Shown: positions 24,762 through 43,899, numbered from the stretch's first letter. The stretch: DNA of 64,000 bases from a virus (IMGVR_UViG_3300027983_000009:18681-82680); one strand, 5' to 3'. The notes: generated by a model not told the origin, from the sequence alone. Made by a program: numbers and translations.

Positions 24762-24862
24762 TCTGCAGAAATGAAGCCGCTGCAGAGGCATGCCTACCAC
24801 TGTACGCTGAACTTGAGGCAGGTCAACTTCACAGGTAAAAAATTGTGTAACAGCACCACGGA
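24762..24862 (-). promoter_or_regulatory. Antisense promoter+hairpin mini-cassette, copy 1
   Basis: Minus strand: TTGACC-N16-TACAGT, then GCC TC TGCAGC GGCTTCATT TCTGCAG. Confidence 0.65.
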
Positions 24863-24896
24863 ATTACGAGATAACGAGAAACAGAGGGGACTAGAC

Positions 24897-25211
24897 ATGC
24901 AGATTTTTGGATCAAAACTCTGGCGGTTCTTTGGCGGAGAGAGGATTGAGGATGGGTTCAGACAGCTGTCCGACAGCATTATCAGTAACCGCAAGTTGAT
25001 TTCAGAACTGCGCACAGAGATCCTGTTGTTGCAGCGGAGAGTGTGGGCATTAGAATCGCACACTATTGAGGAGTCCGTGGCAGAGTGCGAGAAGAAGCTT
25101 GCGTCGTTTGAGGCGAGTGTAATAGCGTGGGCACCGATAGCACCAGATGAGCCGGACGCGCCGGATGTGGCAGTTGAGCCGGACGCGCCGGATGTGGCAG
25201 TTGAGCCGTGA
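24897..25211 (+). CDS. Hypothetical coiled-coil protein with a duplicated EPDAPDVAV tail
   Basis: GAGGGG RBS; 27-nt tandem duplication near the 3' end. Confidence 0.65.
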   Translation: MQIFGSKLWRFFGGERIEDGFRQLSDSIISNRKLISELRTEILLLQRRVWALESHTIEESVAECEKKLASFEASVIAWAPIAPDEPDAPDVAVEPDAPDVAVEP

Positions 25212-25259
25212 CAGTTTCCTCACACCAGCAACTCAAGGAGTGCCGCCATCAAAAATCTA

Positions 25260-25781
25260 GTGTTAATGTTCACTTTGTTTGATCCTGCGAAGCACATGTT
25301 CTCCGTACTGAGGTTGGAGAAAGAGCTGGCCCCGTATCCGCTACCGCAACACGAGATTCTGGCTATGCACAGGTGTTCCAACATAATGCATATGGTGATC
25401 GAGGCGGATCATGGGGTGATCGGTCACTATGCGTTGCTATTCGCCAAGAAGAAGCAACCAGAGCTGTTACTGATTGCGATCACAGCCGAGTACCAGCGAA
25501 GGGGTATTGGGGCGGCTGTGTTGCACAGGATCGTGCTGCGTACTCTTCTGGGTAGGCAGAAGGGGGAGGACCTGATTGTCCGTGTGGCTGAGATCAACAC
25601 ACCTGCGCAACTCTTTTTCAGTAAGTGTGGGCTAAAGTGTGTGAGCATGGTCCCAGAATACTATCCCAGCGGTGAGACAGCCTACAGTTTCAGGGGGGAC
25701 GCGTTGGGTATTGTGGGCAACACGGTAGATAGGCTGCCGGAAGGCTACCCCAAGGAGCGAAGCAGCCGGGTGTCTGGCTGA
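25260..25781 (+). CDS. GNAT (RimI-like) N-acetyltransferase
   Basis: IAITAEYQRRGIG, VAEINTPAQLFF.K.G, YY.SGE.AY. Confidence 0.85.
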   Translation: MLMFTLFDPAKHMFSVLRLEKELAPYPLPQHEILAMHRCSNIMHMVIEADHGVIGHYALLFAKKKQPELLLIAITAEYQRRGIGAAVLHRIVLRTLLGRQKGEDLIVRVAEINTPAQLFFSKCGLKCVSMVPEYYPSGETAYSFRGDALGIVGNTVDRLPEGYPKERSSRVSG

Positions 25782-25825
25782 GGCAGGATCCAAAAACAGA
25801 AAGTAGACAAAGTGGGGCAAGAACA

Positions 25826-26290
25826 GTGCGGATTGGCAGAAGGGTTACAGGGCTGCCCTGTTTGAGTGTGCTCTCAATTCCTGTGAAGCAGGTAGTTGCA
25901 CCGAAAGAAACTGAGCAGCCAGCGGAGAGCTTAGCGACGGCCAGTGAAGACTGGGCTGAACTAACCGACCCGTTGCACCTTCTGCGGGTAGATGTAGACT
26001 GGGTGCTCGAACCTACCGACACGGGCGAGCGACCAGAGCCGTGGGTAGTGGTTACATCGGTGTTGGAGGGTTATTGCCTAGGCAACATGCGAAAAGACCT
26101 CAAGTTCCGGTGCCTGCATAAAGACTTACCATTACCACTTCGAAAAATTGTGCTAACCAAGTGGCTCGTAGAGCACCCGGACTTGCGGTATACCGTGCAG
26201 TTTAGCACCTGCAGGCCAACCCCTAGACGACATTACATCCGTATTACAGCAATCGGTACAGAGACAGTGGAGATACCACAATCAAAGTAA
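25826..26290 (+). CDS. Hypothetical protein
   Basis: 154-aa ORF in the co-oriented run. Confidence 0.5.
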   Translation: MRIGRRVTGLPCLSVLSIPVKQVVAPKETEQPAESLATASEDWAELTDPLHLLRVDVDWVLEPTDTGERPEPWVVVTSVLEGYCLGNMRKDLKFRCLHKDLPLPLRKIVLTKWLVEHPDLRYTVQFSTCRPTPRRHYIRITAIGTETVEIPQSK

Positions 26291-26347
26291 GGACCTGCAT
26301 TGTGTAGGTACCTGCAGTAAACAATTAATTCGCAGAGAGGCAGAGAG

Positions 26348-26597
26348 ATGACTCGTGAGACTATGAGACTGCAGCTGACAGCTGCAGCACTTGAGCGGCT
26401 AATAGGCGAGGATGTAGAGCTCGAGCTGGAGCTCAAAAATTGACCGGAAGGTGCGAGACGCTGTAGCACTAGCTACCCGTGCGATGGTAGACACAGCTGT
26501 TGCCGCAGCGGTCAAAGTAGCAGTAGAAGAAGCGCAGAAGTCGATGCCTCCGATCCAGCTGAAACTGGTTCAAGAAAACACCGTAACTACAAGCTAA
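26348..26597 (+). pseudogene. Frameshifted small gene (break at an A5 run near 26435-26439)
   Basis: MTRETMRLQL…LELKN* continues in another frame as IDRKVRDAVALATRAM…TTS*. Confidence 0.45.
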
Positions 26598-26619
26598 CAG
26601 AAACAGTGGAGATACCCCT

Positions 26620-27027
26620 ATGATTGATGAGGCGGCACCAGATACACCCTATGTCAGAGCAATCCAGAAAAGGTTGGAGTTGCTCCAGCATATGCTAGGC
26701 GCCACCAGCCAGAAGAGACCAGCAACGTGGGGTGAGAGAAATTACTTCTGTGCCGAGATAGGCAGCGAAGACCACACTGTGCTGGTCAGTATGGTTGAAG
26801 AGGATCTCGTGCAGGCTGGCGGCACTATCAACGAGGGTACCGACCAGTATTTTTTCGCCACCAGGGCGGGGGCGCAAGCCATAGGGATGAGCAAAGCTGC
26901 TATCGGCAGAATGATCGATCGGCAGAGGGCGAGGACTAAGGCCCGGCAGGACGCTGCCGCTGTTGCAGCCGCTGTCGCTGCAGCTGCTGAGGGTAGTGTA
27001 GAGCCCACTGAGGGCGACGCTGTGTAA
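26620..27027 (+). CDS. Hypothetical phage protein (H.LG…RNYFC…F.AT..G)
   Basis: GGAG RBS, 135 aa. Confidence 0.7.
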   Translation: MIDEAAPDTPYVRAIQKRLELLQHMLGATSQKRPATWGERNYFCAEIGSEDHTVLVSMVEEDLVQAGGTINEGTDQYFFATRAGAQAIGMSKAAIGRMIDRQRARTKARQDAAAVAAAVAAAAEGSVEPTEGDAV

Positions 27028-27057
27028 CTCAGATACTTATTTTTCGCGGGAGCAGAG

Positions 27058-27357
27058 ATGCCAATTTACAGGGTTATAGTACGCACGATGTTCGAGATTG
27101 ATGCAGAGTCAGAACACGCAGCTAGAGTGCAGGCGTTTGAGGCTGCCGATAACTGTCTGGAGGAGACCCACGACACATTCCAACGATGTCGAAAGCGTGA
27201 CCAGTTGTACGGACGCATCCACAGCGCCAATGACGGCAATCGTACGCTGTGCGGATTACCGATGGACGAGCGGTGGTGGATCCTGACCACAGACGGCAAA
27301 CACGCTCCAGAGTGTGACCAGTGTGCCGTATACGGACTAACAGAGAGCAGCAAATAG
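27058..27357 (+). CDS. Hypothetical zinc-binding protein
   Basis: H…TLCG…CDQC. Confidence 0.65.
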   Translation: MPIYRVIVRTMFEIDAESEHAARVQAFEAADNCLEETHDTFQRCRKRDQLYGRIHSANDGNRTLCGLPMDERWWILTTDGKHAPECDQCAVYGLTESSK

Positions 27358-27363
27358 GAGACG

Positions 27364-27756
27364 ATGATGTTCAAAGTAATGATCAACCCGAAGCCGGAAG
27401 AGCAAGGCACCGGCATCACCAGTGTGCGAAGGTGGGAAGACCCGGAGGTACTGGACAGCCTGCGTAAACTGTTCGACATGACCAGCAACGAAGTTCTGCT
27501 ACAGCTGGAGATCAGCAAGGCAGGCATCGTAGGGAGGTTTGGTCGCACCGCGGTTACGCCCAAACAGAAAGACAGCTGGATCTACACCAGCGAAAAGATG
27601 CCCCAACCGGGCGAGCGTGTGCTGGGTATGACTGAAGATGGTATGTGGGCTGTGGTAATATGGACGACCAAGTACGTACCTATGCTGTACGTGCCGTCTG
27701 TTGACACTACCACGCAGTGTAAACCAGTCGTGAAATGGAAACGCGTAACACTATAG
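27364..27756 (+). CDS. Protein with a C-terminal DUF551-like domain
   Basis: WIYTSEKMPQPGERVL…VVKW; AGGAG RBS. Confidence 0.65.
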   Translation: MMFKVMINPKPEEQGTGITSVRRWEDPEVLDSLRKLFDMTSNEVLLQLEISKAGIVGRFGRTAVTPKQKDSWIYTSEKMPQPGERVLGMTEDGMWAVVIWTTKYVPMLYVPSVDTTTQCKPVVKWKRVTL

Positions 27757-27814
27757 TGTCCGCGTTGTGACTCTGGTTATTAGTAACAGACACTACAACT
27801 GAAAGAGAGTATAC

Positions 27815-28135
27815 ATGACCACAGAATTGCCGAAGTACGTTTGTCACAAAGAGGTGCGAGCGCTAAAGATCGCAAGAGTGGCGAAGCACGCTCACTCAGA
27901 CCCTAACGTAGATGACGCGACGTTTGAGGCGTCATCTGTATTCCAGGGGGCGCACCTGATGCCGGAGCGAAAGGACTTCCTGCCGGTCCCGGTCGACCCA
28001 GCGTGGTATCGGAAACACAAACCGTCAGGTGAGGGCTACTACGTTGTGTACGCTGACGGTTACACGTCGTGGTCACCGGTTGAGGCGTTTGAGCAGGGTT
28101 ACGTATTGGCAGATGAGCCGAAGACAGGAGAATGA
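27815..28135 (+). CDS. Conserved small phage protein (Y..HK.V.ALKI…GYYVVY.DGY.SWSP..AFE.GY)
   Basis: Recognisable widespread phage family motif. Confidence 0.8.
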   Translation: MTTELPKYVCHKEVRALKIARVAKHAHSDPNVDDATFEASSVFQGAHLMPERKDFLPVPVDPAWYRKHKPSGEGYYVVYADGYTSWSPVEAFEQGYVLADEPKTGE

Positions 28136-28413
28136 CCGTGAGCAGCGACTCTACGTGCCCATACTGTCAGCAGGATGGTATGGTCACAGAGTCAATGTCT
28201 GAAGACGAGGAGGTCGAGGTAGAGTGTGGAGGTTGCAGTGAGACGTTCATAGTCACAGCCTCGGTTCGTGTGCTGTATAATGTATCCTGTGCACCGGGTA
28301 AGCACGACCTGCGGCCAAACAAAAAACACGACGGCTGGTACAACTGCAGCAAATGTGACTCATTCTTGAATGAGGTGATCCACCAAGACGAGTTCACCAA
28401 ACCAGCCAGCTAG
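28132..28413 (+). CDS. Zinc-ribbon protein
   Basis: CPYC…CGGC…CSKC. Confidence 0.7.
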   Translation: MTVSSDSTCPYCQQDGMVTESMSEDEEVEVECGGCSETFIVTASVRVLYNVSCAPGKHDLRPNKKHDGWYNCSKCDSFLNEVIHQDEFTKPAS

Positions 28414-28468
28414 GTAGCGTATTTTAACGCAGCGGAGTAGACCCGTGTACGAAGAACGGAGAAGACCT

Positions 28469-28666
28469 ATGCATATCGATGAGGTGCAGGCAGACGTGGA
28501 TGACGTCACCAAAGCTGCAAATGAGCTTGTAGAGCACCTGACCACCGCGGAGTGTTGTGAGACTATAGAGGACCTTCAGGTGAACCTCGAGAATGCTGTG
28601 CGTACAGCTGGCGAGATTCAGGCAGCCGCAAAGAGGCTGCATAAATTGGCAATGCGACTACGGTAG
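28469..28666 (+). CDS. Hypothetical helical protein
   Basis: GGAG RBS then ATG at 28469. Confidence 0.6.
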   Translation: MHIDEVQADVDDVTKAANELVEHLTTAECCETIEDLQVNLENAVRTAGEIQAAAKRLHKLAMRLR

Positions 28667-28691
28667 TCGCGAGCGTGATAGTGTTTAGTAT

Positions 28692-28717
28692 GCCTACTTG
28701 GGGGCTTCGTATCCAAG
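28692..28717 (+). repeat. Dispersed hairpin element, CTTGG/CCAAG stem variant
   Basis: GCC TA CTTGGG GGCTTCGTA TCCAAG; near-identical to 20023. Confidence 0.75.
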
Positions 28718-28746
28718 CTGCTCCGGTTGAAAGGGATGTGGCTACT

Positions 28747-29046
28747 ATGTCTAAATCATCTGAAGCTCTACAGCGTGCGTTCATAGCAGACCCCGGAGCT
28801 ATCCGGTCGCTGATGTTGAACAGAGCGCCGTGCAATGCGGCTCTGGTTGACCATGAATTTGTTCCGGTTGAAAGAGATATGTGTATGCCGGGGGCGCATT
28901 TCACAATCAGCGCTATTGGGCTGGTCAACGCAGTACTTGCAGCGAACGGCCTGCCGCTGGTTGCAGGTATGTGGGAGGATGGCGAAAAGGTAGGGTGTGA
29001 CAATTTTGTAGGGTTCTGTGAGTGCACACCAACTGTAGAGATCTAA
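28747..29046 (+). CDS. Hypothetical phage protein (AF.ADP.AI..L…R.PCN..L..H)
   Basis: ATG 28747 downstream of the hairpin element. Confidence 0.65.
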   Translation: MSKSSEALQRAFIADPGAIRSLMLNRAPCNAALVDHEFVPVERDMCMPGAHFTISAIGLVNAVLAANGLPLVAGMWEDGEKVGCDNFVGFCECTPTVEI

Positions 29047-29062
29047 TCTAAGGAGGTGAGCC

Positions 29063-29278
29063 GTGGATGCAGATAACCTAATAGCGAGAGCCAGAAGGCA
29101 GCAAGTTGTCGGCAATGGCAAGGCGCAGATTGCGGCCCTCGTGTACGAACTGGAGATGCGGGAGGCTCAGGTGGGCGGTATGACAATCCGCTTGCATGAA
29201 GCTGAGTCACAGTTAGCGAACTACATCAAACTTATTAAGGAAGGCGCAGCTAGGCGTCTTAAGCAAGGGGGTGTATAA
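29063..29278 (+). CDS. Hypothetical protein
   Basis: AAGGAGGT RBS plus GTG. Confidence 0.65.
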   Translation: MDADNLIARARRQQVVGNGKAQIAALVYELEMREAQVGGMTIRLHEAESQLANYIKLIKEGAARRLKQGGV

Positions 29279-29568
29279 TGTTCAATAGACACAATAATAT
29301 GGATGGGATGGCGGCACTAGCCAGTTCCGGTTGGGGTGGTGTTACTTCGTGTGGATATCCCAGTGATAGTGCGGGTTACTGCGAGTAGGGCTACCCAAGA
29401 CGGGTTGCCAGCCCAGCTCGTTGTTGTGTTTCCGCAAGGTAGGCTGTGTGTCGAGGATATGAGTGGCGACTGGCAAGCTGTGCGGACCCCGCCAAAGATG
29501 TTGAAGACAGTCGCGATGAGAGAGCAAGCAGCGGTAAGCCCCGTAGCAAACACCAGACAGGAGTAGAT

Positions 29569-29928
29569 GTGGGAGAATTTGAAAAGTCAAAACTGCCAGT
29601 AACCTTCGAAGAGTGGGCCACACACCCCAGACCCAAACCGCTAGACGCAGACGCCCTGGAGCTGTGGCTAGCTGCGCAGGGGCGTTGTAAACCGTGCCCA
29701 TTTTGCGGCACAAGCCGTACGCTAGTGTCTAGCGAGCTGAACGCTCAGACTAATATTTACATCACACACATTGCCTGCAGTAACTTCAAGTGCTTCGTTG
29801 TAGTAGCAGGTAATTCGAGATACAGCCGATTGCAGGCACAGCAGGAGGCGTTTAACAAGTGGCAACGCAGACCGGCAGGAGTAACAGAAACAGGAGACAA
29901 TAACCCACCCCTCAAGCAGCTACCGTAG
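29569..29928 (+). CDS. Lar-like (restriction alleviation) zinc-ribbon protein
   Basis: KPCPFCG…C.NFKC…A..KWQRR; AGGAG RBS plus GTG. Confidence 0.6.
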   Translation: MGEFEKSKLPVTFEEWATHPRPKPLDADALELWLAAQGRCKPCPFCGTSRTLVSSELNAQTNIYITHIACSNFKCFVVVAGNSRYSRLQAQQEAFNKWQRRPAGVTETGDNNPPLKQLP

Positions 29929-29959
29929 CTGCTTTCATTATTAATAACCAACTTTACAT

Positions 29960-29986
29960 GCCGTTGCAGAGGCTTCGTGGCTGCGA
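29960..29986 (+). repeat. Dispersed hairpin element
   Basis: GCC GT TGCAGA GGCTTCGTG GCTGCG A, immediately before the RBS of 30003. Confidence 0.7.
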
Positions 29987-30002
29987 GAGAGGGTAGTGAA
30001 CA

Positions 30003-30311
30003 ATGACAAAAAACCAGCAATCTCTACCTGTGGGCGAGCGTCGGGTTCGTTGGGTAGCAGCTGAACGAGATGACTCTTCGTTCGTAACGGAGTACAGGCT
30101 TATCGTTGGCAAGCTTATTAGACGCGGCAAGATGCGGTGTGTAGCGACAGTCTGGGTTAAACCGGAATGCAACTATGCAACGTGGCACACGTGGGACATT
30201 CAAGGGACAGGTGGCGAGAATAGTGTTGAGTACGCCGACAGCTGCGAGGCAGCTACGCTGCAGGCTAAAGGTATGGCGTCATTAGCGGCAATTACTCAGG
30301 GTTTCGTGTAG
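30003..30311 (+). CDS. Hypothetical protein
   Basis: 102 aa, GAGGG RBS. Confidence 0.65.
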   Translation: MTKNQQSLPVGERRVRWVAAERDDSSFVTEYRLIVGKLIRRGKMRCVATVWVKPECNYATWHTWDIQGTGGENSVEYADSCEAATLQAKGMASLAAITQGFV

Positions 30312-30331
30312 GTAATCAGCAGGAGAGTAAT

Positions 30332-30544
30332 ATGACAGAGCCGTGCTATATGTTGAAGATAGCAGACAGGCTGACAGGGCATGCGCACTGTGGAGCGAGC
30401 GACGCAGAGGCTGCGGCAGACATCATCAGACAGGTGCACGGTATTCTGGTGCAGGTGCGGCAGCAGTATTTACTCCCGACAGAGGCCGGATACCGTGGAG
30501 GGCTGAGTCAGGAAGTGCGAGCACAGATCATGACACTACTTTGA
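30332..30544 (+). CDS. Hypothetical protein
   Basis: AGGAG RBS. Confidence 0.55.
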   Translation: MTEPCYMLKIADRLTGHAHCGASDAEAAADIIRQVHGILVQVRQQYLLPTEAGYRGGLSQEVRAQIMTLL

Positions 30545-30560
30545 AGAGGAGCAGAGAGAA

Positions 30561-30998
30561 GTGAAGAAACAGAAAGCAGCACTAACTGAGGCGCAGCAAC
30601 CACCAAAAACACTACGCGACTTAAAGGTCGGTGACAGCGTGTTTGTTGTGCATCAGCGTGGGAGGTGGGATCCTGCAGAGTATAGGACAGCGGTTGCCAC
30701 TGTGGTAAAGGTGGGTAGGTTGTACGCATACATTGAGCAGGGTGTGTACAGTGACCTGTCACCGTTCTGTCGCGACACTGGGTCTAGCGTCCACCCGGGT
30801 GATGGTAATGTGAGATCTAATAACCGCGGGTTTGATGTGCACCTGTCACAGCAAGGCTACCATGAATCCGGGCAGAGAAGCGCGGAGATGGCCAGGCTGA
30901 CCAGACGGATCATCGCGAGGATGGGTGATCTGATACAGCTACCGCCAGAAGTTGTGACAGCGATACACAAGCTGTTGGACGACGCCAAGCTGGATTAG
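30561..30998 (+). CDS. Small beta-barrel (SH3-like) phage protein
   Basis: LKVGDSVFVV…ATVVKVGRLYAYI. Confidence 0.65.
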   Translation: MKKQKAALTEAQQPPKTLRDLKVGDSVFVVHQRGRWDPAEYRTAVATVVKVGRLYAYIEQGVYSDLSPFCRDTGSSVHPGDGNVRSNNRGFDVHLSQQGYHESGQRSAEMARLTRRIIARMGDLIQLPPEVVTAIHKLLDDAKLD

Positions 30999-31018
30999 CA
31001 ACCCAGCCAATGTGTAGT

Positions 31019-31045
31019 GCCGCTGCAGAGGCGTAATATCTGCAG
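31019..31045 (+). repeat. Dispersed hairpin element upstream of the Cas12m-like gene
   Basis: GCC GC TGCAGA GGCGTAATA TCTGCA G; a second, unrelated hairpin lies at 31063-31089. Confidence 0.8.
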
Positions 31046-31129
31046 AGCCCAGAATATGGTGACAACCCTGCCGACGTTCGGCGGGGTTGGCAGCAAGCAG
31101 CAAACATCAAACAGAGAGCAGGAATCAGA

Positions 31130-33121
31130 ATGACTGAAGTAACACGTAACTGGTGTTATGGAGCCAAGGCGCCAACGTTGAATGCCGACATGGTGGACCA
31201 CCAGCTTTGGCTGGCCCACAATTACAAGAACCGGCACATCGAGCTGGAGCGGAACAGGCGAATTACTGCGGATGCGTTCGCCAGATCTCTTCACCCACAG
31301 TTCGAACTGGATGCCGCAGAATATGAGGTTGCAGACGCTGCAGTGGATGCAGCGTTCGACCTACTTAAAGCTGAGCGGATTGCGGCACGGAGCCGTGTAG
31401 ACGCGACGCCGGCGGTTGCTGCAGCAATCAGGGAAGCTAAGCGGATCCGGTGTGATGTAGGTGCTCGCAAGAAAATAAGCTCGAGAGCTGCATACAAGCT
31501 GGTCAATGAGTCGCAGGAGCCGTACAAAGAGAGAGCTGCGGCTGAGACAGTTATTCCGGAGGGGACAACCCCTGCAGCTCGTGATCAGCTGATTTATCGC
31601 AATAGGTTGGCGATGATGGAGGCGGCTGGCGTAGATGCCGGCGCCAAGGTGATGTACGACGCCAGACTCGCAGCCCGCGAAGAGTTCCGCGATCTTGGGC
31701 TGAATTGGGGCACCTACCTGACGGTGGAGGCTGCGACAAAGGACTACCACAAAGGAGCACCCCCGGAATTTCGCAGATTTGATGGTCGCGGGTCCATCGG
31801 TGTGCAGATACAGGTAGGCGGAGGATTAACGTATGCTGCTGCTGTTGCCTGCGCGAATACGTTTTTGAGAATTCAGTTGCCACCACTATCTGAGCGGTTG
31901 GCAACAACAGGCTCGGACAGCGGCGTGCAGGCTCACGGGGTGGCGTGGTTAAGGATCGGCTCAGTCGGACACCAACCGATCTGGGCGACAGTCCCTTTTG
32001 TGTACAGTCGCGAGATTCCGCACGATGCTGTAATCAAGTGGGCGTACCTGGACAGGGTTCGTGTCGGCCAGAAGTATCACTGGAAGCTGCGGCTTAACCT
32101 GAAGACTTCGCAGGTCAGGAGGCCGGCAGAGAACAGAGATATGGTTGCAGCCCATCTCGGGTACAGGCTGGTAGGCGAAGAAATCCGTGTGCTGACAACC
32201 TTGGATACCAGCGGAGAAGTAAGCACCCTCTCCATCTCGCGGGAAGAGGTGGCAGCGTTCGGTTACATGCGCAAGCTGGAGTCGATCCGAGAGAATGCCT
32301 CGAATCTGGTGACAGCAGCTCTCGGTCGCTGGTCGCGTGTAGCTAATATCTCAGAGTGGTTCCAGGAACATTCGGACAACATCTCAAGGTGGCGAGGCCC
32401 TGAGAGGATGAGTCGACTTGCCCGGTCTTGGCGTGATAACAGGTTCGACGCAGACCAATCTTCGTCTGCAGAGATTCCTGAGTTTTTGGAGTGGGCGCAG
32501 CTCAAGCTGGAGGAGTACCGGAGACAGCCGCACTATCGGCCGACCAACCCGGATGATTTGACTACAGTTTTCGGGGTGGTAGAGTTCTGGAGGAAGTACG
32601 ACAAGCACCTGTGTGAATGGTCGGCGAATCAGTCGCGGAAATGTATCGCAAGGCGTGAGCAGCTCTACAGGACATATGCTGCTAATTTGGCCAGGCGGTA
32701 CAACGCGTTGGCGATTCCGGATGTTGACTGGGCCGAGCTTCGAGAAAAGCCAGCGGTCGACGAGACAGATGCGCAGAGCAAGGAATTGCGGAGATTGGCA
32801 TCTATCGTCTCACCGGGCAGACTATCGGCAATCCTGGTCGAGGTGTTCAGCGACCGAGCTCACAAGACAGCCGCTCAGGGGATGACTATCATCTGCAATG
32901 CGTGCGGTAAGGTCCATGAGTTCGACAAGAAGCAGCGTGTGACAACTTGTGTCCACTGCGGGGCAACGTGGGACCAGGATGAGAATGCTGTCCGCAACAC
33001 GTTGGCAAATGGCCTGGTAAAGCGGGCGAGGGTAGAGTCCAGAAACGGGGCACCAGATCCGGACGCCCCTGTGAAAGTGCGAGCGGTCAGACGGGACCGG
33101 AGGAGACCTGCTACGACGTAG
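31130..33121 (+). CDS. Cas12m (type V-M/V-U1)-like TnpB-derived RNA-guided effector with inactivated RuvC
   Basis: QLWLAHNYKN…ER; L.WGTY..VE; F.RFDG.G.IGVQIQ; RuvC-I VAAHLGYR (His in place of Asp); RuvC-II LAIPDVD; SPG.L; CNAC/CVHC zinc ribbon; RuvC-III WDQDENA. Confidence 0.85.
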   Translation: MTEVTRNWCYGAKAPTLNADMVDHQLWLAHNYKNRHIELERNRRITADAFARSLHPQFELDAAEYEVADAAVDAAFDLLKAERIAARSRVDATPAVAAAIREAKRIRCDVGARKKISSRAAYKLVNESQEPYKERAAAETVIPEGTTPAARDQLIYRNRLAMMEAAGVDAGAKVMYDARLAAREEFRDLGLNWGTYLTVEAATKDYHKGAPPEFRRFDGRGSIGVQIQVGGGLTYAAAVACANTFLRIQLPPLSERLATTGSDSGVQAHGVAWLRIGSVGHQPIWATVPFVYSREIPHDAVIKWAYLDRVRVGQKYHWKLRLNLKTSQVRRPAENRDMVAAHLGYRLVGEEIRVLTTLDTSGEVSTLSISREEVAAFGYMRKLESIRENASNLVTAALGRWSRVANISEWFQEHSDNISRWRGPERMSRLARSWRDNRFDADQSSSAEIPEFLEWAQLKLEEYRRQPHYRPTNPDDLTTVFGVVEFWRKYDKHLCEWSANQSRKCIARREQLYRTYAANLARRYNALAIPDVDWAELREKPAVDETDAQSKELRRLASIVSPGRLSAILVEVFSDRAHKTAAQGMTIICNACGKVHEFDKKQRVTTCVHCGATWDQDENAVRNTLANGLVKRARVESRNGAPDPDAPVKVRAVRRDRRRPATT

Positions 33122-33414: not shown

Positions 33415-33471
33415 TGTATGTGTTCTGCAGACACGAAGCTGCAGAGGCAGTAAACAGAAAGAGGGAAAACC

Positions 33472-36693: not shown

Positions 36694-36731
36694 TGTTTCA
36701 GCACTAAATGAGTGAGCCCGAGAAACGTAGT

Positions 36732-36757: not shown

Positions 36758-36770
36758 AAGGGAGGCGCTG

Positions 36771-36983: not shown

Positions 36984-37086
36984 GCACACTACCGGAATAC
37001 ATTTGCGTAAACTGACCGTTGTTGAGATACTATCGACGGCAGCGTGTCAGTTACGCAGGCGTATTCGATGCGTAGGAGTATCTATC

Positions 37087-37254
37087 ATGAAAAACTGGAA
37101 AACGACAGCAGCTGGTATTTTGAGTGCGATTGTGCTGATAGCCCCACAGCTGTTAGCTCTGATTGACAACAACCCGTCTACACACTTTGATCTGTCCGTG
37201 GTACTTGCAGCGTTGAGTGTTCTCGGCATCGGCTGGAGCGCTAAAGACAAATAG
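37087..37254 (+). CDS. Small two-TM membrane protein (holin-like)
   Basis: MKNWKTTAAGIL…G..AKD; AGGAG RBS. Confidence 0.7.
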   Translation: MKNWKTTAAGILSAIVLIAPQLLALIDNNPSTHFDLSVVLAALSVLGIGWSAKDK

Positions 37255-37275
37255 GTTTATGTTTTACACAGTACC

Positions 37276-37301
37276 CCCAGCTCAGCGGGTTAGTAGCTGA
37301 A
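37276..37301 (+). repeat. Dispersed hairpin element, CCC/GGG class
   Basis: CCC AG CTCAGC GGGTTAGTA GCTGAA. Confidence 0.7.
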
Positions 37302-37324
37302 CAGAGAGTAGAAAAGGTGTTTGT

Positions 37325-37846
37325 ATGAACAGGCTAATCTCAGCAATCGTTGCGGTACTACTTGGCGCTGCCGGCTCCGCAGTTGGAGGGTACTGGAACC
37401 CGCAGGGGGTTGTCCCTGTTGGCGACGCGAGGATCCCGGCCCAGCTTGTCGGCTGGCTGATTACTGGGCTGACTGGCATTAGCGGCCTGTTCGGCGGGGC
37501 TGCGGTCCCGTGGAAAACCTGGATGGCTGCGGCTACGGCTAAGCTGAAAGCTGGGTTTGCTACCACTACACTGCCAGGTGCATTGTCGCGATTGCAAATC
37601 GACGCAGTACCCTATAACGGGTCGCATAAATCCTCGGTGTCGGCTGTACCGATTGCGGTAGAGCACCTGCAAGGGTGTGTCTACCACCTGAGGGTTGCAC
37701 TGAGAGATGACCGACCGGCGCAGGATCTGCTGGACCAGATTGCCGTCAAGGTTGGTAGAGTCACGGCAGAGGTCGGGCAGCATCCAGTTGCTCCAATTGC
37801 TGAGGTAGAGACATTTGCGACGCTGACGAAAGGTGGTGTAATTTGA
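37325..37846 (+). CDS. Membrane protein
   Basis: N-terminal signal/TM segment plus a second TM. Confidence 0.7.
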   Translation: MNRLISAIVAVLLGAAGSAVGGYWNPQGVVPVGDARIPAQLVGWLITGLTGISGLFGGAAVPWKTWMAAATAKLKAGFATTTLPGALSRLQIDAVPYNGSHKSSVSAVPIAVEHLQGCVYHLRVALRDDRPAQDLLDQIAVKVGRVTAEVGQHPVAPIAEVETFATLTKGGVI

Positions 37847-38295
37847 AGTACCTAATCTTATCCCTGTGTGTTCTGCTGTCCGGGTGCGTACAAGTACCTG
37901 GCGACACATCTAAACCCGCGTTACCGAACCTGCCATCCCCGTCGACGCCTGACGCGCAATTCGGGGGTGTCGATGAGACACTGGTGGCGAGAATCCTGCA
38001 GTCACCAGAATTGCAGGACGCCGCCAGACTGCGTCGCTATGCCGCTCTATACCGTGGGTTATCTGAGACGGTACAGCAGCCAGAGCTGCTACCTATGCAG
38101 GTACTGCAAGGCGGTATCAAAGCCACGGAGCAGTTTATAAAGCCCAGAAGCGCCGCCATGCAGGCTATCTTGGTGTCCCACCTACCCAAGCCGCCTCTGA
38201 GCGATAGCGACAGGCAGCGAATAGTGGACGCGTTTGGCAGCTTGTCTTTGGCGTGCCACGCTGCTGCTCACCGACTCGAAACTGGGGGTAAGTGA
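37843..38295 (+). CDS. Putative lipoprotein
   Basis: Lipobox LLSG-C followed by a Pro-rich linker. Confidence 0.7.
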   Translation: MKYLILSLCVLLSGCVQVPGDTSKPALPNLPSPSTPDAQFGGVDETLVARILQSPELQDAARLRRYAALYRGLSETVQQPELLPMQVLQGGIKATEQFIKPRSAAMQAILVSHLPKPPLSDSDRQRIVDAFGSLSLACHAAAHRLETGGK

Positions 38296-38296
38296 T

Positions 38297-39253
38297 ATGA
38301 CAATCACCACGGCAAATCTGAACGATTATTGTGGGTGGGGTCGTGTCGACTCCGTAACACCCAGAGAGCGAGTACTGGAAGCGCAGCGTATGGCTGACGA
38401 GACGGCGGCTGCGTTTGCCAAGCCGTTCTTCGTTGCTGGGCAGGTTGAGAGCGGGGCCGGGAAATGCGCAAGGCTGCATAAGGTTGTAGAGAAGGTGACA
38501 GGGAAGTCACTGTACATAGGGCCGCAACTCACAGGGGACTGCGTTTCGACCTCCAGTTTCATGACTGCACAAATACGCTCGTGCATAGAAATAGCGAAGG
38601 GGGACTTTGCAAACTACAAAAAGCTCTTTACCCCTTTCCATTACGCGACCGGTCGCGTACTGGTGGGCAAGAACCGACTTCGCGGCGGTGCTGGGTCTAT
38701 CGGCGGCTGGCAGGCGGAGGCGAACGCAACGTATGGCTGGCTCGCAGAGGAAGATAACGGAGGCTTGGTCTACTCGAAGGCTATAGCCGACGCGTGGGGC
38801 GACGACAAGAAGTCCCAGGGCAAGTCGTTCCGTGACTTCATGGTGGTCGCAAAAGACTCAAACCTCGAGCAGTGGAGCCGCGTCCAGTCGTGGAACGAGG
38901 CTCGCGACGGCATGTGGCACGGCTACCCACTTACGATTGGTAGTAATCGTGGGTATACGATGAAGCCCGACAAGGACGGCTTCCACAGACCATCCGGAAC
39001 ATGGTCTCACCAGCTCACACTTTTCGCATTCTGGGAGAATGTAAAGGTCCCAGCTGTAGCTATAGGTAACACCTGGGGAGGCGTACACGGGGAGGTTAAA
39101 GACCCTGAGACCGGCGAACCTCTGCCGAAAGGTGTACTACTTGTGCGGTTGGAGGATTTCGTTAAGTACCACTTGACGAGTTCCGCTGAGTGCATTGCTT
39201 ACAGTGACGTTAACGGATTCGGTGCTACGTTTGACTGGTCGGCGTTCGGCTAG
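38297..39253 (+). CDS. Papain-like (C1-type) cysteine peptidase
   Basis: Q..GDCVS, WSHQL and IGNTWG give the Cys/His/Asn triad. Confidence 0.75.
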   Translation: MTITTANLNDYCGWGRVDSVTPRERVLEAQRMADETAAAFAKPFFVAGQVESGAGKCARLHKVVEKVTGKSLYIGPQLTGDCVSTSSFMTAQIRSCIEIAKGDFANYKKLFTPFHYATGRVLVGKNRLRGGAGSIGGWQAEANATYGWLAEEDNGGLVYSKAIADAWGDDKKSQGKSFRDFMVVAKDSNLEQWSRVQSWNEARDGMWHGYPLTIGSNRGYTMKPDKDGFHRPSGTWSHQLTLFAFWENVKVPAVAIGNTWGGVHGEVKDPETGEPLPKGVLLVRLEDFVKYHLTSSAECIAYSDVNGFGATFDWSAFG

Positions 39254-39288
39254 GCTGCGGCCCGATAGTGACCATATGGAGAATTGGC

Positions 39289-40524
39289 ATGAAGAGAATT
39301 TTGGGATTGGTAGCAGTACTGCTGCTTACAGTTGGTTGCGGGCAGCTGCAGCTACCAAAAGTTATAATTGTGACACCGCTCAGCGAGCAGGATGTCCTTG
39401 ACGCGAGAGCGTTAGCCTTGATCGGTGCAAATGCAGACCTGGGCGCCACCATTGAGGAGGATGACAAGCCGCAGGCGTGCCCATGCGGAGGGACCGGCCG
39501 TAGCGGTGACGGTCTAGGGCCGTGCGAGTGTGCAGGCGGCTGCAAGTGTAAAGCTAGAAGTGCGGCACCGATCAGCGACCCTGACCCAGAGCCATCCCCG
39601 GTCGACGAGCTCGAACCCGAGGTGGCAGAGGACCCAGAACCTGTCAGTAGCGCCGCCGCAGTAGGTAGCGTGTCGGCAGAGGCGGAGCTGTTTCAGCAGC
39701 TCGCAGATACGCTGAAACAGTTGAGTGAGATTGATAAGTCGACTGCTACGGTTGTCTCAGCTTTGGATAAGCGAATTACTGCACTCGAAGCAAGCAGGCA
39801 GACTGCTACCACTGCTACGGTTACGAAAGCAGTGAACGACAGCCCTGAGCGGCAGCTGATCATCCTGTATACGGATAAAGACATTGATGCGATCGATACG
39901 TGGGAGACAGAGCAGGGATCCCAGTTGGTTGATGTTGGGTGGTCGGTGGGCACGGACTCTAGTTATCAAGTGGTGAAGCTCAGGATTGAAGCACCAGATG
40001 CCGGTCAGTATCAGCAGGCCTTGGAGCTCGCCACAAAGAACGGTACACCATACTGGGCTGTATTCACTGCAGCTAAATTTCAGAAAGGCGGCGTCGGCCT
40101 GCCGGCTGCTTCCGTTGTGTCGACGATGCTGAACACTAAGCTCGCACCAGCAACCAGTCAGCTGGAGCCTTGGAAGGCTATCCCTGAAACGTGGCCAGCG
40201 CGTGTCCCTATCAACGGTACGACAACACCATCCAAGCGGACGTTCGTGTCGCATTTGCGTGGCGGTGGGAAGGGTGGTGAAAAACATGTAACCAAGTACT
40301 TCCAGAGCTGGCCTCTAGAAAGTATGACGATCGGACAGCTTGCCACGCTGCACGATCAGGACCATTCGGCTAGCACTGTTACCAGCAACCAAGGGACCAC
40401 AACGCAGCCGACTGTGAAATACACACAGCCGACTGTGCAGTACATGCAGCCTACCCAGAGCAATCGGCGACGAGGTGGTCTCTTTCAATCTCGCGGCAAT
40501 TGCGCAAACGGGAAGTGCTTTTAA
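39289..40524 (+). CDS. Putative lipoprotein with a Cys-rich motif and C-terminal CxNGxC
   Basis: LTVG-C lipobox; CPCGGTG..GDG…CEC; terminal GNCANGKCF. Confidence 0.7.
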   Translation: MKRILGLVAVLLLTVGCGQLQLPKVIIVTPLSEQDVLDARALALIGANADLGATIEEDDKPQACPCGGTGRSGDGLGPCECAGGCKCKARSAAPISDPDPEPSPVDELEPEVAEDPEPVSSAAAVGSVSAEAELFQQLADTLKQLSEIDKSTATVVSALDKRITALEASRQTATTATVTKAVNDSPERQLIILYTDKDIDAIDTWETEQGSQLVDVGWSVGTDSSYQVVKLRIEAPDAGQYQQALELATKNGTPYWAVFTAAKFQKGGVGLPAASVVSTMLNTKLAPATSQLEPWKAIPETWPARVPINGTTTPSKRTFVSHLRGGGKGGEKHVTKYFQSWPLESMTIGQLATLHDQDHSASTVTSNQGTTTQPTVKYTQPTVQYMQPTQSNRRRGGLFQSRGNCANGKCF

Positions 40525-41288
40525 TGTCAGACTCTGCAGTATTCGTAACGCAGCTCCTGGGATTGCAGGTAGTGCAAGCCGGGCTGCTTGAGTGTGCCCA
40601 CAGCAGCGGTCCGCCGGTAGGTCAGACTGCTGACGGCCCTGTTGTGGGATTATTCCGTGTGCGGAGAGAGCTGGATGTGTCTCCGCAGGTTCAGAAGATT
40701 GCGGAGTCTGTATTGGACGGGGATAAGGATATCCGTATCGGCGGAATCCGCATTGTGATACCGGTTAGCAGGCAATACGTGTTTGCTACACCGCTGCCAG
40801 TATTCGTAGCAGCGGTAGGTACTGAGTTCAACGTATCGATTAGTAAGCTGGAGCTGATCCGGGACGAGCAAACCTCACAACCTGCGATCCTGGTTACGAC
40901 AGCTTCCAGCATCAAGCCAGACTTGGTTGTGGTGCTGGCGGTGTTGCCGGAAAATAAACCGGATACTGAGCCGTCGGGTTTTGATATCTCACTGATCACC
41001 ACCAAGTTGCTGCAAACCAACCGTGTCCCTGCGCAGCATACTGCTGCAATCATTAAAGCGACCCAGCACGCCTGGCGGACAGGGATGGCAACCCAAACAG
41101 CTTCGAGGATGCTGCCCAAGACAGGCAAGAAGGCATCACAGCACCAGCTTGAGGCTGCGGCTCGAGAGATAGTGAAACAGCTGGTAGATCAGCAGGTTGT
41201 CACGATGGGCCTATTTTTCTGGATGCGGCTGGGTTATTGGCTTCTCACTATTATCATGCTCCTTCTGGAGCAACCAGACAGCGACTAG
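40524..41288 (+). CDS. Hypothetical protein with a C-terminal TM
   Basis: TAATG overlap with the previous gene. Confidence 0.65.
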   Translation: MSDSAVFVTQLLGLQVVQAGLLECAHSSGPPVGQTADGPVVGLFRVRRELDVSPQVQKIAESVLDGDKDIRIGGIRIVIPVSRQYVFATPLPVFVAAVGTEFNVSISKLELIRDEQTSQPAILVTTASSIKPDLVVVLAVLPENKPDTEPSGFDISLITTKLLQTNRVPAQHTAAIIKATQHAWRTGMATQTASRMLPKTGKKASQHQLEAAAREIVKQLVDQQVVTMGLFFWMRLGYWLLTIIMLLLEQPDSD

Positions 41289-41331
41289 ACCGTTGTGGTC
41301 TTGCAGTCGTTTTTGTTTTTTTGGCTGTTAC

Positions 41332-41398
41332 GCCTCTGCAGAGGCTTCGTGTCTGCAGCTGAAGAAATGAAGCCTCTGCAGAGGCTTTGTGTCTGCAG
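41332..41398 (+). repeat. Two tandem hairpin elements plus an overlapping antisense copy
   Basis: GCC TC TGCAGA GGCTT[CT]GTG TCTGCAG at 41332 and 41372. Confidence 0.8.
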
Positions 41399-41462
41399 AG
41401 GCAGAGATACTGCGCCTGCGAATGGTGCATCATCAGTTCACTGTAGCTATGTAGGGAGTAAC

Positions 41463-41942
41463 ATGCAGCCACGACTGGACCGTATAGGTGATATCACCAG
41501 AGCAGCTGTCACGCAGCTGTTTATGCAACTGCTCAACCCGCAGCGGCGATACAGAGTGGCAGAGTTTGACTTTACTACGTACGACATTGCTAAGCCTGTA
41601 GTAGAGGCTGCGCAGTTCATGCTATCTCAAACACTGACTCCGACAGAGATCGATACTGTGCGTAAGAAGTCAGTAGAGCTGTGGAAGAGATATGTGAGCA
41701 TGACCGGAGTGGCTGAGTGGTGCGGAGAAGGAGCTGACGGCTCTACCCCGGAGAAGCTGATGATGCGGTGGGCTACAGACGCCCAGCAGCTGCTGGAAGC
41801 TGGCACACGCGAAGACTTAGCGGAAGCTAAGACGCACATGACACTGATACAGAACACGATTAAAGAGCTACAGCAGCAACGTGGTATTTCGGGCACACCA
41901 GTCAGCAGGCCACCAGCTATACAGCAGAGAAAGAGGAAGTAG
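41463..41942 (+). CDS. Hypothetical protein
   Basis: GGGAG RBS then ATG at 41463. Confidence 0.65.
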   Translation: MQPRLDRIGDITRAAVTQLFMQLLNPQRRYRVAEFDFTTYDIAKPVVEAAQFMLSQTLTPTEIDTVRKKSVELWKRYVSMTGVAEWCGEGADGSTPEKLMMRWATDAQQLLEAGTREDLAEAKTHMTLIQNTIKELQQQRGISGTPVSRPPAIQQRKRK

Positions 41943-41988
41943 TGTGAGCAGGCTTGTGCAACTACAGTCGGTGATTGGAGACTAAGCT

Positions 41989-42183
41989 ATGTTAGCGTAC
42001 GGAGCTAGAGTTATTGAGTTCATGGACGGCCCATTACAGGGCGAGTTTCACGAAGTAGAGAACGGCTTCCCGTGCCCGGATAGGATGTCCGTACCAGATG
42101 CGACAGCGAAGTGGGAATACATATACGACATAGATAGCAGTACAGGCAGAGCGACCTTCGTCAGCGAGGGTGTGCGCAGATAG
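41989..42183 (+). CDS. Small phage protein (F.DGPL.G)
   Basis: GGAG RBS. Confidence 0.6.
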   Translation: MLAYGARVIEFMDGPLQGEFHEVENGFPCPDRMSVPDATAKWEYIYDIDSSTGRATFVSEGVRR

Positions 42184-42194
42184 CAGGAGACACA

Positions 42195-42509
42195 ATGAGC
42201 GTCAAATACATCCGATACACAGACGAGAAAACAGAGCCGGTAGCTCGCAAACCTATCAGCGTAGGTAAAGACCCGGCAGCACAGGGTTTCCTGAGGATGT
42301 TTGGTCAGCCGACCAAGCTACCAGGTCAGGACGACGAGGGTTACGGCGGCAAGATCACCACAGACAAGATGGTCTACGTCAACCGTAGTGATACTAGCAC
42401 CAATGGCAACGCTAGAGGCGGTCGCTGGTACCGCGTGTATGCAACTTGCTACGGCAATGCGACATCCTCTTGGGTGCTCATAGGAAAAACTCGGTACCAC
42501 TTACGTTGA
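42195..42509 (+). CDS. Conserved phage protein (GYG.KI.T..MV…RWYRVY..CYGN..S)
   Basis: AGGAG RBS; recognisable small phage family. Confidence 0.7.
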   Translation: MSVKYIRYTDEKTEPVARKPISVGKDPAAQGFLRMFGQPTKLPGQDDEGYGGKITTDKMVYVNRSDTSTNGNARGGRWYRVYATCYGNATSSWVLIGKTRYHLR

Positions 42510-42538
42510 CCGCAGAGGCAGCAAACAGGACGTAGCGA

Positions 42539-42642
42539 TCTGCAGAAATGAAGCCTCTGCAGGGGCATGACTAGCACTGTACGCTGAACCTGTGGCGAGT
42601 CAACTGCACAGGTAAAAAATTGTGTAACAGCACCACGGAATT
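42539..42642 (-). promoter_or_regulatory. Antisense promoter+hairpin mini-cassette, copy 2
   Basis: Minus strand: TTGACT-N16-TACAGT, then GCC CC TGCAGA GGCTTCATT TCTGCAG. Confidence 0.65.
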
Positions 42643-42735
42643 TGAAGAGACAGCAAACAGAAAGCAGGAAAATCATGAAAGACCAGGACTACTACAAAGA
42701 GCTCTACCCAGTGATCCTAGACCGTTGGTTTTTAC

Positions 42736-42762
42736 GCCTCTGCAGGGGCTTCGTGTCTGCAG
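42736..42762 (+). repeat. Dispersed hairpin element at a duplication junction
   Basis: GCC TC TGCAGG GGCTTCGTG TCTGCA G. Confidence 0.75.
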
Positions 42763-42999
42763 CTTACGGCAATGCGACATCCTCTTGGGTGCTCATTGGA
42801 AACATTCAGTACCACTTACGTTGACCGCAGAGGCAGCAACAATGGTTACGGGAAATAAGGTGACGGTTAAAGAAGAGCACAAGAAGACCAAACAGCCAGC
42901 AGCTGGATACAGTCGACCACTTGGGGAGTCTTGTGCTGAGTGCGGGTTAATATTTGGACAGCACCGCCATAATTGCAGTAAACAGAAAGCAGGAAAATC

Positions 43000-43626
43000 A
43001 TGAAAGACTGGGACTACTACACCGAAACGGACGTTCGATTTTACGGATTCAAGGAAGAGAGTACTCTGTTTAGTGAGCGATTGCAGGCGATAGACGCAGC
43101 AAAACTAACAGCAGAGGAGCGAGAGACGGCCAAGAGAGAGCTGAAGCCGACGATTCGCCGAGAGTTTCGGGAATTAAATGCTCCGCACAGGGCGGCATTA
43201 AGACGCAAGCAAGACGAGTTCTGGGCAGACGCCCGGGAAGATTTGGGGTATACCGAGACCTTGTCGAAGGAAGCTGTAGCAGCCATGGAGAGCGAAGCCT
43301 GGGAGCAGGAGCACTCTGATGGTTTCTCTGAAGTGTACATCGCACTGCAAGACTTGTGGGCTGTTGTTGAGGCGGCAGCGGCAGCGGCAGTTAAAGTCGC
43401 TACCGTGCCGGCTGAGACGGCAACCAAAAAACCGGAAAAGAATACGAGACAGATCCGCCAATTGCAAGACCTGACAACAGCGGTGATGATCTCGCTGAAT
43501 CACAGTTCGTCGCCTAGGGTCGTTGGGATTGCTAGGGACACTGCTAGCAACACGCCGAATGTACTGCTCGCTACAGCTCAGGATGTACCTATCCGTATTA
43601 CTGTAGATCTGCAGGTGGGGCTCTAA
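43000..43626 (+). CDS. Hypothetical phage protein
   Basis: 208 aa; AWEQEHSDGFSEVY motif. Confidence 0.7.
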   Translation: MKDWDYYTETDVRFYGFKEESTLFSERLQAIDAAKLTAEERETAKRELKPTIRREFRELNAPHRAALRRKQDEFWADAREDLGYTETLSKEAVAAMESEAWEQEHSDGFSEVYIALQDLWAVVEAAAAAAVKVATVPAETATKKPEKNTRQIRQLQDLTTAVMISLNHSSSPRVVGIARDTASNTPNVLLATAQDVPIRITVDLQVGL

Positions 43627-43627
43627 G

Positions 43628-43846
43628 ATGGCCAGATTCACAATCGCAGAGCTGAAGGCTGGTACGTGCAGCATGACAGAGCTGGCTCGCGTGATAGATT
43701 TGAAATTGAGTAGATGGCCGGGGAATTGCGACTTTGTGGCGACGAAGCTGGTAGAGTACGGCCAATTACCGGGCCGCGTAGTGCGAGGTCACTACCATGG
43801 CCGAATATCATCTGCAGAAATGAAGCCTCTGCAGAGGCATGCCTAG
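43628..43846 (+). CDS. Hypothetical protein whose 3' end runs into the mini-cassette
   Basis: Ends in the element-derived SAEMKPLQRHA. Confidence 0.45.
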   Translation: MARFTIAELKAGTCSMTELARVIDLKLSRWPGNCDFVATKLVEYGQLPGRVVRGHYHGRISSAEMKPLQRHA

Positions 43847-43899
43847 CACTGTACGCTGAACTTGAGGCGAGTCAACTGCACAGGTAAAAAATTGTGTAA
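43811..43899 (-). promoter_or_regulatory. Antisense promoter+hairpin mini-cassette, copy 3
   Basis: Minus strand: TTGACT-N16-TACAGT, then GCC TC TGCAGA GGCTTCATT TCTGCAG. Confidence 0.65.

Follow-up and report, generated by a model that had tools for sequence, protein, structure and literature searches.

Three antisense blocks in the phage genome

We analysed a window of 64,000 nucleotides (nt), comprising bases 18681–82680 of the 82,680-bp virus record IMGVR_UViG_3300027983_000009 (positions are given in window coordinates), and studied three short, near-identical blocks that lie against the direction of the genes and in which a predicted sigma70-like promoter points into a single structured element. 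The virus record has a CheckV completeness of 57%, and proteins of the window region are present also on a 143,180-bp contig. In a greedy open reading frame (ORF) call, 118 of the 137 ORFs were on the plus strand, and the GC skew is positive along the entire window; the record is effectively a one-strand genome. The original prediction, made from the sequence of the window, had stated that no credible minus-strand gene lies downstream of the blocks, and this holds: none of the seven minus-strand ORFs tested, four of them directly downstream of a block, matched a PHROG family, and all three plus-strand neighbour ORFs of the blocks gave weak PHROG matches. Searches of the window with Rfam at gathering thresholds and with ARAGORN returned no match and no tRNA gene, respectively. 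A minus-strand peptide was also considered and rejected, since the short ATG frame inside the block varies in length among the copies.

The blocks, hereafter cassettes, were found where they had been placed, and share the following core:

24762–24850, minus strand: cassette 1, 89-nt core; UP-like A/T tract at 24834–24850, −35 TTGACC at 24821–24826, −10 TACAGT at 24799–24804, predicted start at 24791–24793
42539–42627, minus strand: cassette 2, 89-nt core; −35 TTGACT at 42598–42603, −10 TACAGT at 42576–42581, predicted start at 42568–42570
43811–43899, minus strand: cassette 3, 89-nt core; −35 TTGACT at 43870–43875, −10 TACAGT at 43848–43853, predicted start at 43840–43842

Among the three cores, nine of the 89 aligned columns vary. 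A 53-nt probe allowing up to three mismatches found exactly three sites (24798–24850, 42575–42627 and 43847–43899), compared to none in 100 shuffles, and the entire 82,680-bp record holds only these three copies. Their layout on the minus strand is the one originally described, namely TTACACAATTTTTTACC, 7 nt, TTGAC(C/T), 16 nt, TACAGT, 9 nt and a structured element ending in TCTGCAGA. Identity among the cassettes is bounded by TCTGCAGA at one end and TTGTGTAA at the other, and their flanks are mutually unrelated. Cassettes 1 and 2 have 15 further right-hand bases in common (CAGCACCACGGAATT), which we counted as flank and not as cassette because the same stretch recurs in a cassette-free paralogous spacer at 42958–42978.

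The predicted promoter matches the sigma70 consensus at 9 of 12 positions in all three cassettes, with A2 and T6 of the −10 present. None of the six −10 positions and none of the first five −35 bases is a variable column; the 16-nt spacer contains three of the nine, and the 9 nt between the −10 and the handle contain two. A search of the record gave no other relatives of the promoter half of the cassette: outside the blocks, 346 sites match a 14-mer of it at 11 or more positions compared to 192–318 for shuffles, and among the matches listed none reached 13/14.

The repeat handle and the phage Cas12m homologue

The structured element had been drawn as a hairpin, and as drawn this was wrong: the 14-nt palindrome GCCTCTGCAGAGGC is perfect in copy 3 only, as one and the same pair is disrupted without compensation in copies 1 and 2. 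The minimum-energy fold of all three RNAs is a CTGCAG(A/C)...TCTGCAG stem and not the palindrome, and the fold energies of the cassette transcripts are ordinary (z −1.8 to +0.4). An excess of CTGCAG was discarded as a signal; its 85 copies in the window make it one of many equally common hexamers and reflect the general GCAG-rich composition.

Judged by sequence and predicted fold, the "hairpin" of the cassettes is the 3′ portion of a CRISPR repeat of type V-M (Cas12m). Folded as a handle, it combines a 7-bp stem and a 9-nt GGCTTC loop (GGCTTCATT) with a 3-bp pseudoknot arm (GCC:GGC). Across the record the element reads (A/T)GCC, one base, the 7-bp stem, a 9-nt loop starting with GGC (or GGG) and the return strand. 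In an alignment of 19 phage handles the stem and the pseudoknot both covary: 93% of the cells pair, compared to 30–44% when the partner is slid, and six of the seven stem pairs change on both sides; part of the 19 handles had been picked by a stem filter, so that the stem pairing figures are inflated, while the pseudoknot lay outside this filter. The first pseudoknot pair is GC in 12 handles, CG in 7 and unpaired in none.

We then used two covariance models. The first, R1, was made from the 19 aligned handles of the phage and found 26 elements at E < 0.05, all within 7235–43842, with 21 on the plus and five on the minus strand. The second, R2, was made from 36 repeats that adjoin distant cas12m homologues on other contigs, most of them in arrays with a period of 72–73 nt; only such foreign repeats were taken, because circularity had to be avoided. 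R2 detected 15 of the 26 phage elements at E < 0.05. It matched the three cassettes on the minus strand, at ranks 3, 5 and 9 of 22, and none of them on the plus strand. The matches of both models, confined to the minus strand, identify the element after the promoter as a handle of the repeat type used by the Cas12m that the phage encodes:

24762–24789, minus strand: Cas12m repeat handle of cassette 1 (R1 41 bits; R2 E 8e-4)
42539–42566, minus strand: Cas12m repeat handle of cassette 2 (R1 42.7 bits; R2 E 1e-6)
43811–43838, minus strand: Cas12m repeat handle of cassette 3 (R1 44 bits; R2 E 4.9e-7)
31130–33121, plus strand: Cas12m homologue of 663 amino acids (aa), the presumed protein partner of the handles (PDB 23vw_A, E 3.1e-44; Cas12m2 8hhl, E 2.9e-14)

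In this homologue the Pfam domain Cas12f1-like TNB scores below the cut-off, His342 at RuvC-I is invariant in eight homologues, and the C-terminal zinc ribbon gives the only transposase-like signal among the proteins scanned. Cas12m proteins are described (PMC10442227, PMC11013384) as binding DNA and blocking transcription without cutting, with no need for a trans-activating CRISPR RNA (tracrRNA). The Cas12m2 scaffold, as given in PMC10442227, consists of a six-pair helix closed by a G:A pair, a loop and a pseudoknot, with A(−2) and C(−1) before the guide, and the layout of the phage handle agrees with that description; for GoCas12m, PMC11013384 gives a triplex-pseudoknot handle of ~30 nt. Subtype V-M is described as enriched in plasmids and as occurring in some prophages (PMC11656645).

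A metagenome scan with an alignment of Cas12m homologues yielded 24 loci. According to R1, regular arrays with a period of 72–73 nt adjoin distant cas12m genes and are always co-oriented with the gene (ten repeats at locus L011, nine at L013 and, by eye, at least nine at L007, whose protein is 50% identical), and R2 finds long arrays in bacterial metagenome-assembled genomes (MAGs) of several phyla, e.g. ~25 repeats in L037. The exact repeat variant of the phage occurs in none of 185,579 species genomes, and a looser pattern gave eight loci in unrelated phyla, which points to no host. The GenBank phage collection contains one Cas12m-like phage, Rctr197k (KX853510.1 109498–116739, our locus L032), in which the Cas12m-like gene is annotated as "similar to transposase" and lies beside an annotated CRISPR array of 1.5 kb; all 13 repeats detected there are in one array, and R2 finds none of them. 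A phage Cas12m is called the first in a 2026 preprint and is reported there to have an ordinary array.

The array repeats of L007 and L011 end one base after the 7-bp stem, and the likeness among the three cassettes ends at the same point. Because conservation stops 1 nt after the repeat, it is neighbouring DNA that sits at the guide position, as had been proposed:

24742–24761, minus strand: guide-position flank of cassette 1, covering the 22-nt spacer that follows ORF 24188–24739 (stop at 24739)
42519–42538, minus strand: guide-position flank of cassette 2, within the spacer that follows ORF 42195–42509 (stop at 42509)
43791–43810, minus strand: guide-position flank of cassette 3, antisense to codons ~55–61 of ORF 43628–43846

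From this anatomy we infer that the flank would act as a guide.

The promoter, too, was found at a fitting distance and in the minus orientation, as originally claimed. In all three cassettes the −10 ends 9 nt ahead of the pseudoknot arm, for which the chance is ~0.002 per handle for an 8-nt window. A start 6–8 nt after the −10 would lie 2–4 nt before the pseudoknot arm and, by our own mapping, at about −31 to −29 in Cas12m2 numbering, where the ordered scaffold begins. A sigma70-like site on the same strand within 150 nt upstream was seen for three of the 26 handles, which are the cassettes (0 of 21 on the plus strand, 3 of 5 on the minus strand). Sense handles would be transcribed along with the genes, an antisense handle would require a separate promoter, and the only antisense handles that are intact and free-standing have such a site.

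Taken together, the cassettes are probably self-promoted genes for Cas12m guide-like RNAs, with the flank in the guide position. The original prediction is correct in its anatomy, and it is its function, i.e. transcription, binding by Cas12m, use of the flank as guide and the target, that we infer. In the proposed mechanism, each block would be a small minus-strand gene for a transcript resembling a CRISPR RNA (crRNA). The sigma70-type promoter would start transcription 2–4 nt before the single type V-M repeat, which would fold into a Cas12m handle and be bound by the Cas12m homologue of the phage. The ~20 nt after the handle would serve as guide; these bases belong to the phage DNA next to each copy, differ among the copies, and are antisense either to the end of the gene upstream or to the spacer that follows it. 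Since Cas12m proteins bind DNA without cutting, the complex would act as a programmable roadblock. The cassette locus itself would escape binding, as the repeat occupies the place of the protospacer-adjacent motif (PAM), and the most plausible targets would be cassette-free versions of the same locus in co-infecting relatives.

The remaining handles of the phage are likewise solitary or irregularly clustered; the 26 form no regular array, and no second repeat follows any of the three cassettes. They are located as follows:

41355–41389, minus strand: intact handle without promoter (R1, R2), with a palindromic core in common with the plus-strand handle 41368–41402
33421–33452, minus strand: degenerate handle that has lost 3 nt from the pseudoknot arm of the loop, without promoter (R1)
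41328–41402, plus strand: two handles of the CTGCAG subtype, 41328–41362 and 41368–41402 (R2 ranks 2 and 1)
42732–42766, plus strand: handle within the mosaic that lies between cassettes 2 and 3, followed 2 nt past its stem by a 75-nt copy of 42450–42524
7235, 7550, 10106, 11066, 11157, 11222, 11303, 11358, 20019, 28688, 29956, 31015, 33136, 34749, 34991, 36295, 36728 and 37272 (starts), plus strand: the 18 remaining handles, 35 nt each (R1)

These 18 plus-strand handles (7235–37306) lie mostly 10–60 nt ahead of a start codon. The plus-strand handles at 7175–7269, 29900–29990 and 41288–41362 directly follow terminator-like hairpins with T-runs and stand just ahead of the next gene; plus-strand handles seem to mark operon joints. 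The handle at 31015–31049 lies 81 nt before the ATG of cas12m. A solitary repeat upstream of cas12m is also present at L010 (188–222) and L011 (7531–7565), distant relatives with arrays, and such a repeat could be a conserved, self-regulating crRNA-like RNA. Between 10106 and 11392, six handles of a second subtype, with a CCC/GGG pseudoknot, lie among CTCACATATAC-type repeats at irregular spacings of 55–91 nt, a cluster that R2 does not detect. In a deltaproteobacterial MAG (L038, 4686–4720), a single handle of V-M type with the same GGCTTCGTG loop stands ~25 nt before a ribosome-binding site and ATG, and resembles the sense-strand handles of the phage.

The window has further features. The stretches 12905–15943, 6979–7140 and 16445–18688 are repetitive, the first being a 1012-aa ORF made of 12-nt-periodic repeats, the others a series of Asp-rich 9-nt repeats and a ~320-nt unit present in four to five paralogous copies. 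A 482-aa ORF at 50714–52162 matches phage DNA methyltransferase families (PHROG, best E 4.9e-39). A GNAT acetyltransferase gene at 25260–25781, 410 nt from cassette 1, matches Pfam Acetyltransf_7 and Acetyltransf_1, and its nearest solved structures are RimI-like. AcrVA5 is a known anti-Cas12a acetyltransferase; no sequence link of the 25260–25781 protein to AcrVA5 was seen.

Targets, portability and competing explanations

We searched the record with the 20-mers and with seeds of at least 9 nt of each of the 26 guide positions, alongside random controls, and only duplications stood out over the controls. At the handle 42732–42766, the guide position matches 42450–42469 at 20/20, with TTGC before the match. 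The guide position of the handle 28688–28722 matches 28862–28881, 140 nt downstream, at 17/20 with TTTG before the match; ~4% of random 20-mers reach at least 17/20 in the record and 26 guides were tested, so this match alone is not significant.

Several results weigh against the interpretation of the cassettes as guide-like RNA genes. The search for targets of the ~20 nt past their handles, which had been suggested as a check, gave a best second match in the record of 15/20, equal to the mode of 300 random controls. Seeds of at least 9 nt were absent from the phage for cassettes 1 and 3, and the one 9-nt seed for cassette 2 is at chance level. In IMG/VR each guide has one exact match (18–19-mers; an 18-mer for cassette 2 and a 19-mer for cassette 3). 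These were rejected as targets and read as chance, as they lie in unrelated AT-rich or GC-rich contexts with the flanks GTA, CCG and ATT and no TTN. The record contains 48 sigma70-like sites, which are no commoner on the coding strand (26, plus) than on the other (22, minus) and almost none of which lies between genes; the phage's own promoters may not be of the sigma70 type. Moreover, the 1.7 kb downstream of cassette 1 contain no minus-strand terminator, and the nearest one for cassette 2 is ~290 nt away. All three cassettes descend from one block, and the link between promoter and handle is thus one retained evolutionary event and not three. The check for empty sites failed to produce a cassette-free relative in the phage records and the IMG/VR scans, and if cassettes 1 and 2 were simple insertions, their hypothetical empty sites would have CTG and not TTN at the place of the PAM. 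A short terminated RNA was rejected as a general feature of the cassettes, as the terminator-like site of cassette 3 is the palindrome inside its handle and is absent in cassettes 1 and 2.

The search for relatives comprised a megablast comparison of two stretches with 50,697 phage records, in which no close relative was found, exact block patterns in IMG/VR, with no matches, and protein-guided IMG/VR scans with the Cas12m homologue and ORF 43000–43626, which gave no relatives. The cassettes had been called portable, and this stands in so far as the three copies lie in unrelated flanks, a gene is truncated at one of them and one locus has a cassette-free paralogue; no target-site duplication, terminal repeats or empty site in a relative were seen. 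The paralogue belongs to a tandem mosaic at 42450–43021, in which 42450–42524 recurs at 42765–42839 (95%) and 42651–42696 at 42976–43021 (93%). Where the first unit has cassette 2, the second has a 53-aa zinc-ribbon-like ORF at 42842–43003. The truncated gene lies at cassette 3:

43628–43846, plus strand: 72-aa ORF, a truncated N-terminal fragment whose last 11–12 codons and stop are cassette 3

That copy 3 supplies the C-terminus of this ORF was thus borne out, whereas the insertion suggested from it was not borne out in a simple form. An exhaustive HMMER search with the ORF found 24 proteins at E ≤ 0.001, one of which is a strain variant (P0015, 99%) that keeps the same cassette-coded tail. 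The 23 other homologues are 118–369 aa long, match residues ~8–72 only and have a conserved region beyond. Using these 23 homologues as tblastn queries against the record, we recovered the N-terminal piece with 22 of them but found no C-terminal remainder; the sole other match had an E of 0.044. As the record lacks the C-terminal two thirds of the interrupted gene family, a simple insertion was rejected. Cassette 3 therefore marks the point at which a once longer gene was broken, by replacement or deletion and not by a clean insertion. The interrupted gene (43628–43810; P0021–P0043) belongs to a family without a Pfam domain (four members scanned) and with WPGNC...GHYHGP...HSW...DPTRW motifs, which could be a Cys-His-Asp enzyme.

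The main rival of the guide-like RNA interpretation is that the units are transcribed and the flank is irrelevant, so that the RNAs are handle-only decoys that would soak up the Cas12m of the host or of the phage itself; in the latter case the 21 sense-strand handles in mRNA leaders would be freed from the protein. The conserved unit is exactly promoter plus handle, its three copies have arbitrary flanks and no detectable target, and viral solitary repeats just behind a promoter are described as acting in this way for other CRISPR types (PMC10651486). However, the cognate effector is encoded by the phage, the absence of the repeat variant from the 185,579 species genomes leaves no host array known to be mimicked, and decoys have no need to all point against the genes. 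We consider this rival unlikely, yet worth keeping in mind.

Returning to cassettes that make guide-like RNAs, a further step would be a drive or exclusion device that works without cleavage. A unit that has landed would turn the adjoining DNA into a guide against the same locus in cassette-free co-infecting relatives, and Cas12m on the rival allele would either silence it or provoke recombination that copies the cassette together with neighbouring accessory genes. Such a device is a rather improbable extension. If true, it would form, together with the 21 sense-strand handles, a phage-wide Cas12m network without array or spacer acquisition.

It is quite improbable that the cassettes are leftovers of recombination, i.e. 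stumps of leader and first repeat from decayed or inverted arrays that spread illegitimately and are neutral or serve only as hot spots. The duplication mosaic around cassette 2 and the gene truncated at cassette 3 would fit such an origin, as would the decaying minus-strand handle at 33421–33452 and the palindromic core, which permits inversion as in the overlapping plus/minus pair at 41355–41402. Against such an origin, the −10, the first five −35 bases, the pseudoknot and the stem are kept in all three copies, the strain variant keeps the cassette-coded tail, and the cassette handles rank high among the matches to true array repeats.

Antisense regulation is very improbable as the role of the cassettes. 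The antisense RNA, or convergent transcription, would lower expression of the upstream gene, and the handle would only stabilise or mark the 5′ end. The transcripts would indeed enter ORFs 24188–24739, 42195–42509 and 43628–43846 in antisense with no nearby terminator, and that of cassette 2 would complement 42765–42839 over 75 nt, but the first ~20 nt past the handle are intergenic for cassettes 1 and 2, and a precise Cas12m repeat at the 5′ end is left unexplained. Finally, a function on the plus strand, as leaders, phage-specific promoters or "anti-handle" mRNA sequences with a minus promoter that matches by chance, is scarcely credible: each block stands 30–50 nt ahead of a ribosome-binding site and ATG, plus-strand transcription must cross the blocks and the plus RNA also folds into a stem, but the plus strand of the blocks has no sigma70-like site, is matched by neither R1 nor R2, loses its TTGAGG box in copy 2 and has no motif in common with other intergenic regions.

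Comparison with known systems

Phages are known to use solitary repeats, each with a promoter of its own, against the CRISPR systems of their hosts. Like such solitary repeat units (SRUs) and RNA anti-CRISPRs (Racrs), the cassettes have one repeat that belongs to no array and is directly preceded by a predicted promoter. Racrs mimic host repeats and are not associated with cas genes, as described in the available text of PMC10651486, in which no V-M example was seen. In contrast, the present phage encodes the matching effector, has 26 repeats, most of them in mRNA leaders, and all three promoter-bearing copies are antisense. A second relative in kind is CracrVA1, one of the viral Cas-repressing crRNA-like RNAs (Cracr), which, as described in the preprint (bioRxiv 10.1101/2024.10.29.618823), has a 10-nt spacer match to the host cas12a promoter beside a PAM and a rho-independent terminator, and reprograms the host Cas12a. 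Compared with that description, the cassettes would share a native promoter, one repeat-like handle plus guide, the origin in a phage and a type V effector steered to bind and not to cut; they differ in that no comparable target was found in the phage, that they have no terminator and that the effector belongs to the phage.

With type V-M systems, the phage shares the protein family, the sequence and fold of the repeat and independence of a tracrRNA. Unlike them, it has no array, regular spacers or adaptation genes, and its repeats are dispersed, three of them with private promoters. Cas12m is a close structural relative of TnpB of the IS200/IS605 elements, whose omega-RNA is ~150 nt long, overlaps the 3′ end of tnpB, takes flanking DNA as guide and is not known to be similarly self-promoted. 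As with the omega-RNA, each insertion of a cassette would create its own guide from flanking DNA, whereas the cassettes measure 89 nt, lie 6.3–10.7 kb from the protein gene and have no transposase or transposon ends. The PeSL cassettes of T4-type phages are short repeated modules of promoter and hairpin that stand between genes, at recombination junctions; they point with the genes and are not known to have a CRISPR link. The cassettes are likewise short, repeated promoter-plus-hairpin modules.

Searches of the full-text literature gave no account of phage V-M repeats that are dispersed or have promoters of their own. What is new here, compared to known solitary repeats, is that the phage itself encodes the effector, that no array is left, and that the repeats are scattered, with three oriented to fire against the direction of the genes. 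If the RNAs are made and loaded, guides would arise by insertion of an 89-nt unit and not by spacer acquisition, and a virus would be directing a DNA-binding Cas protein at sequences of its own kind. For Cas12m tools, the cassette would then be a natural and very compact module for expressing a single guide.

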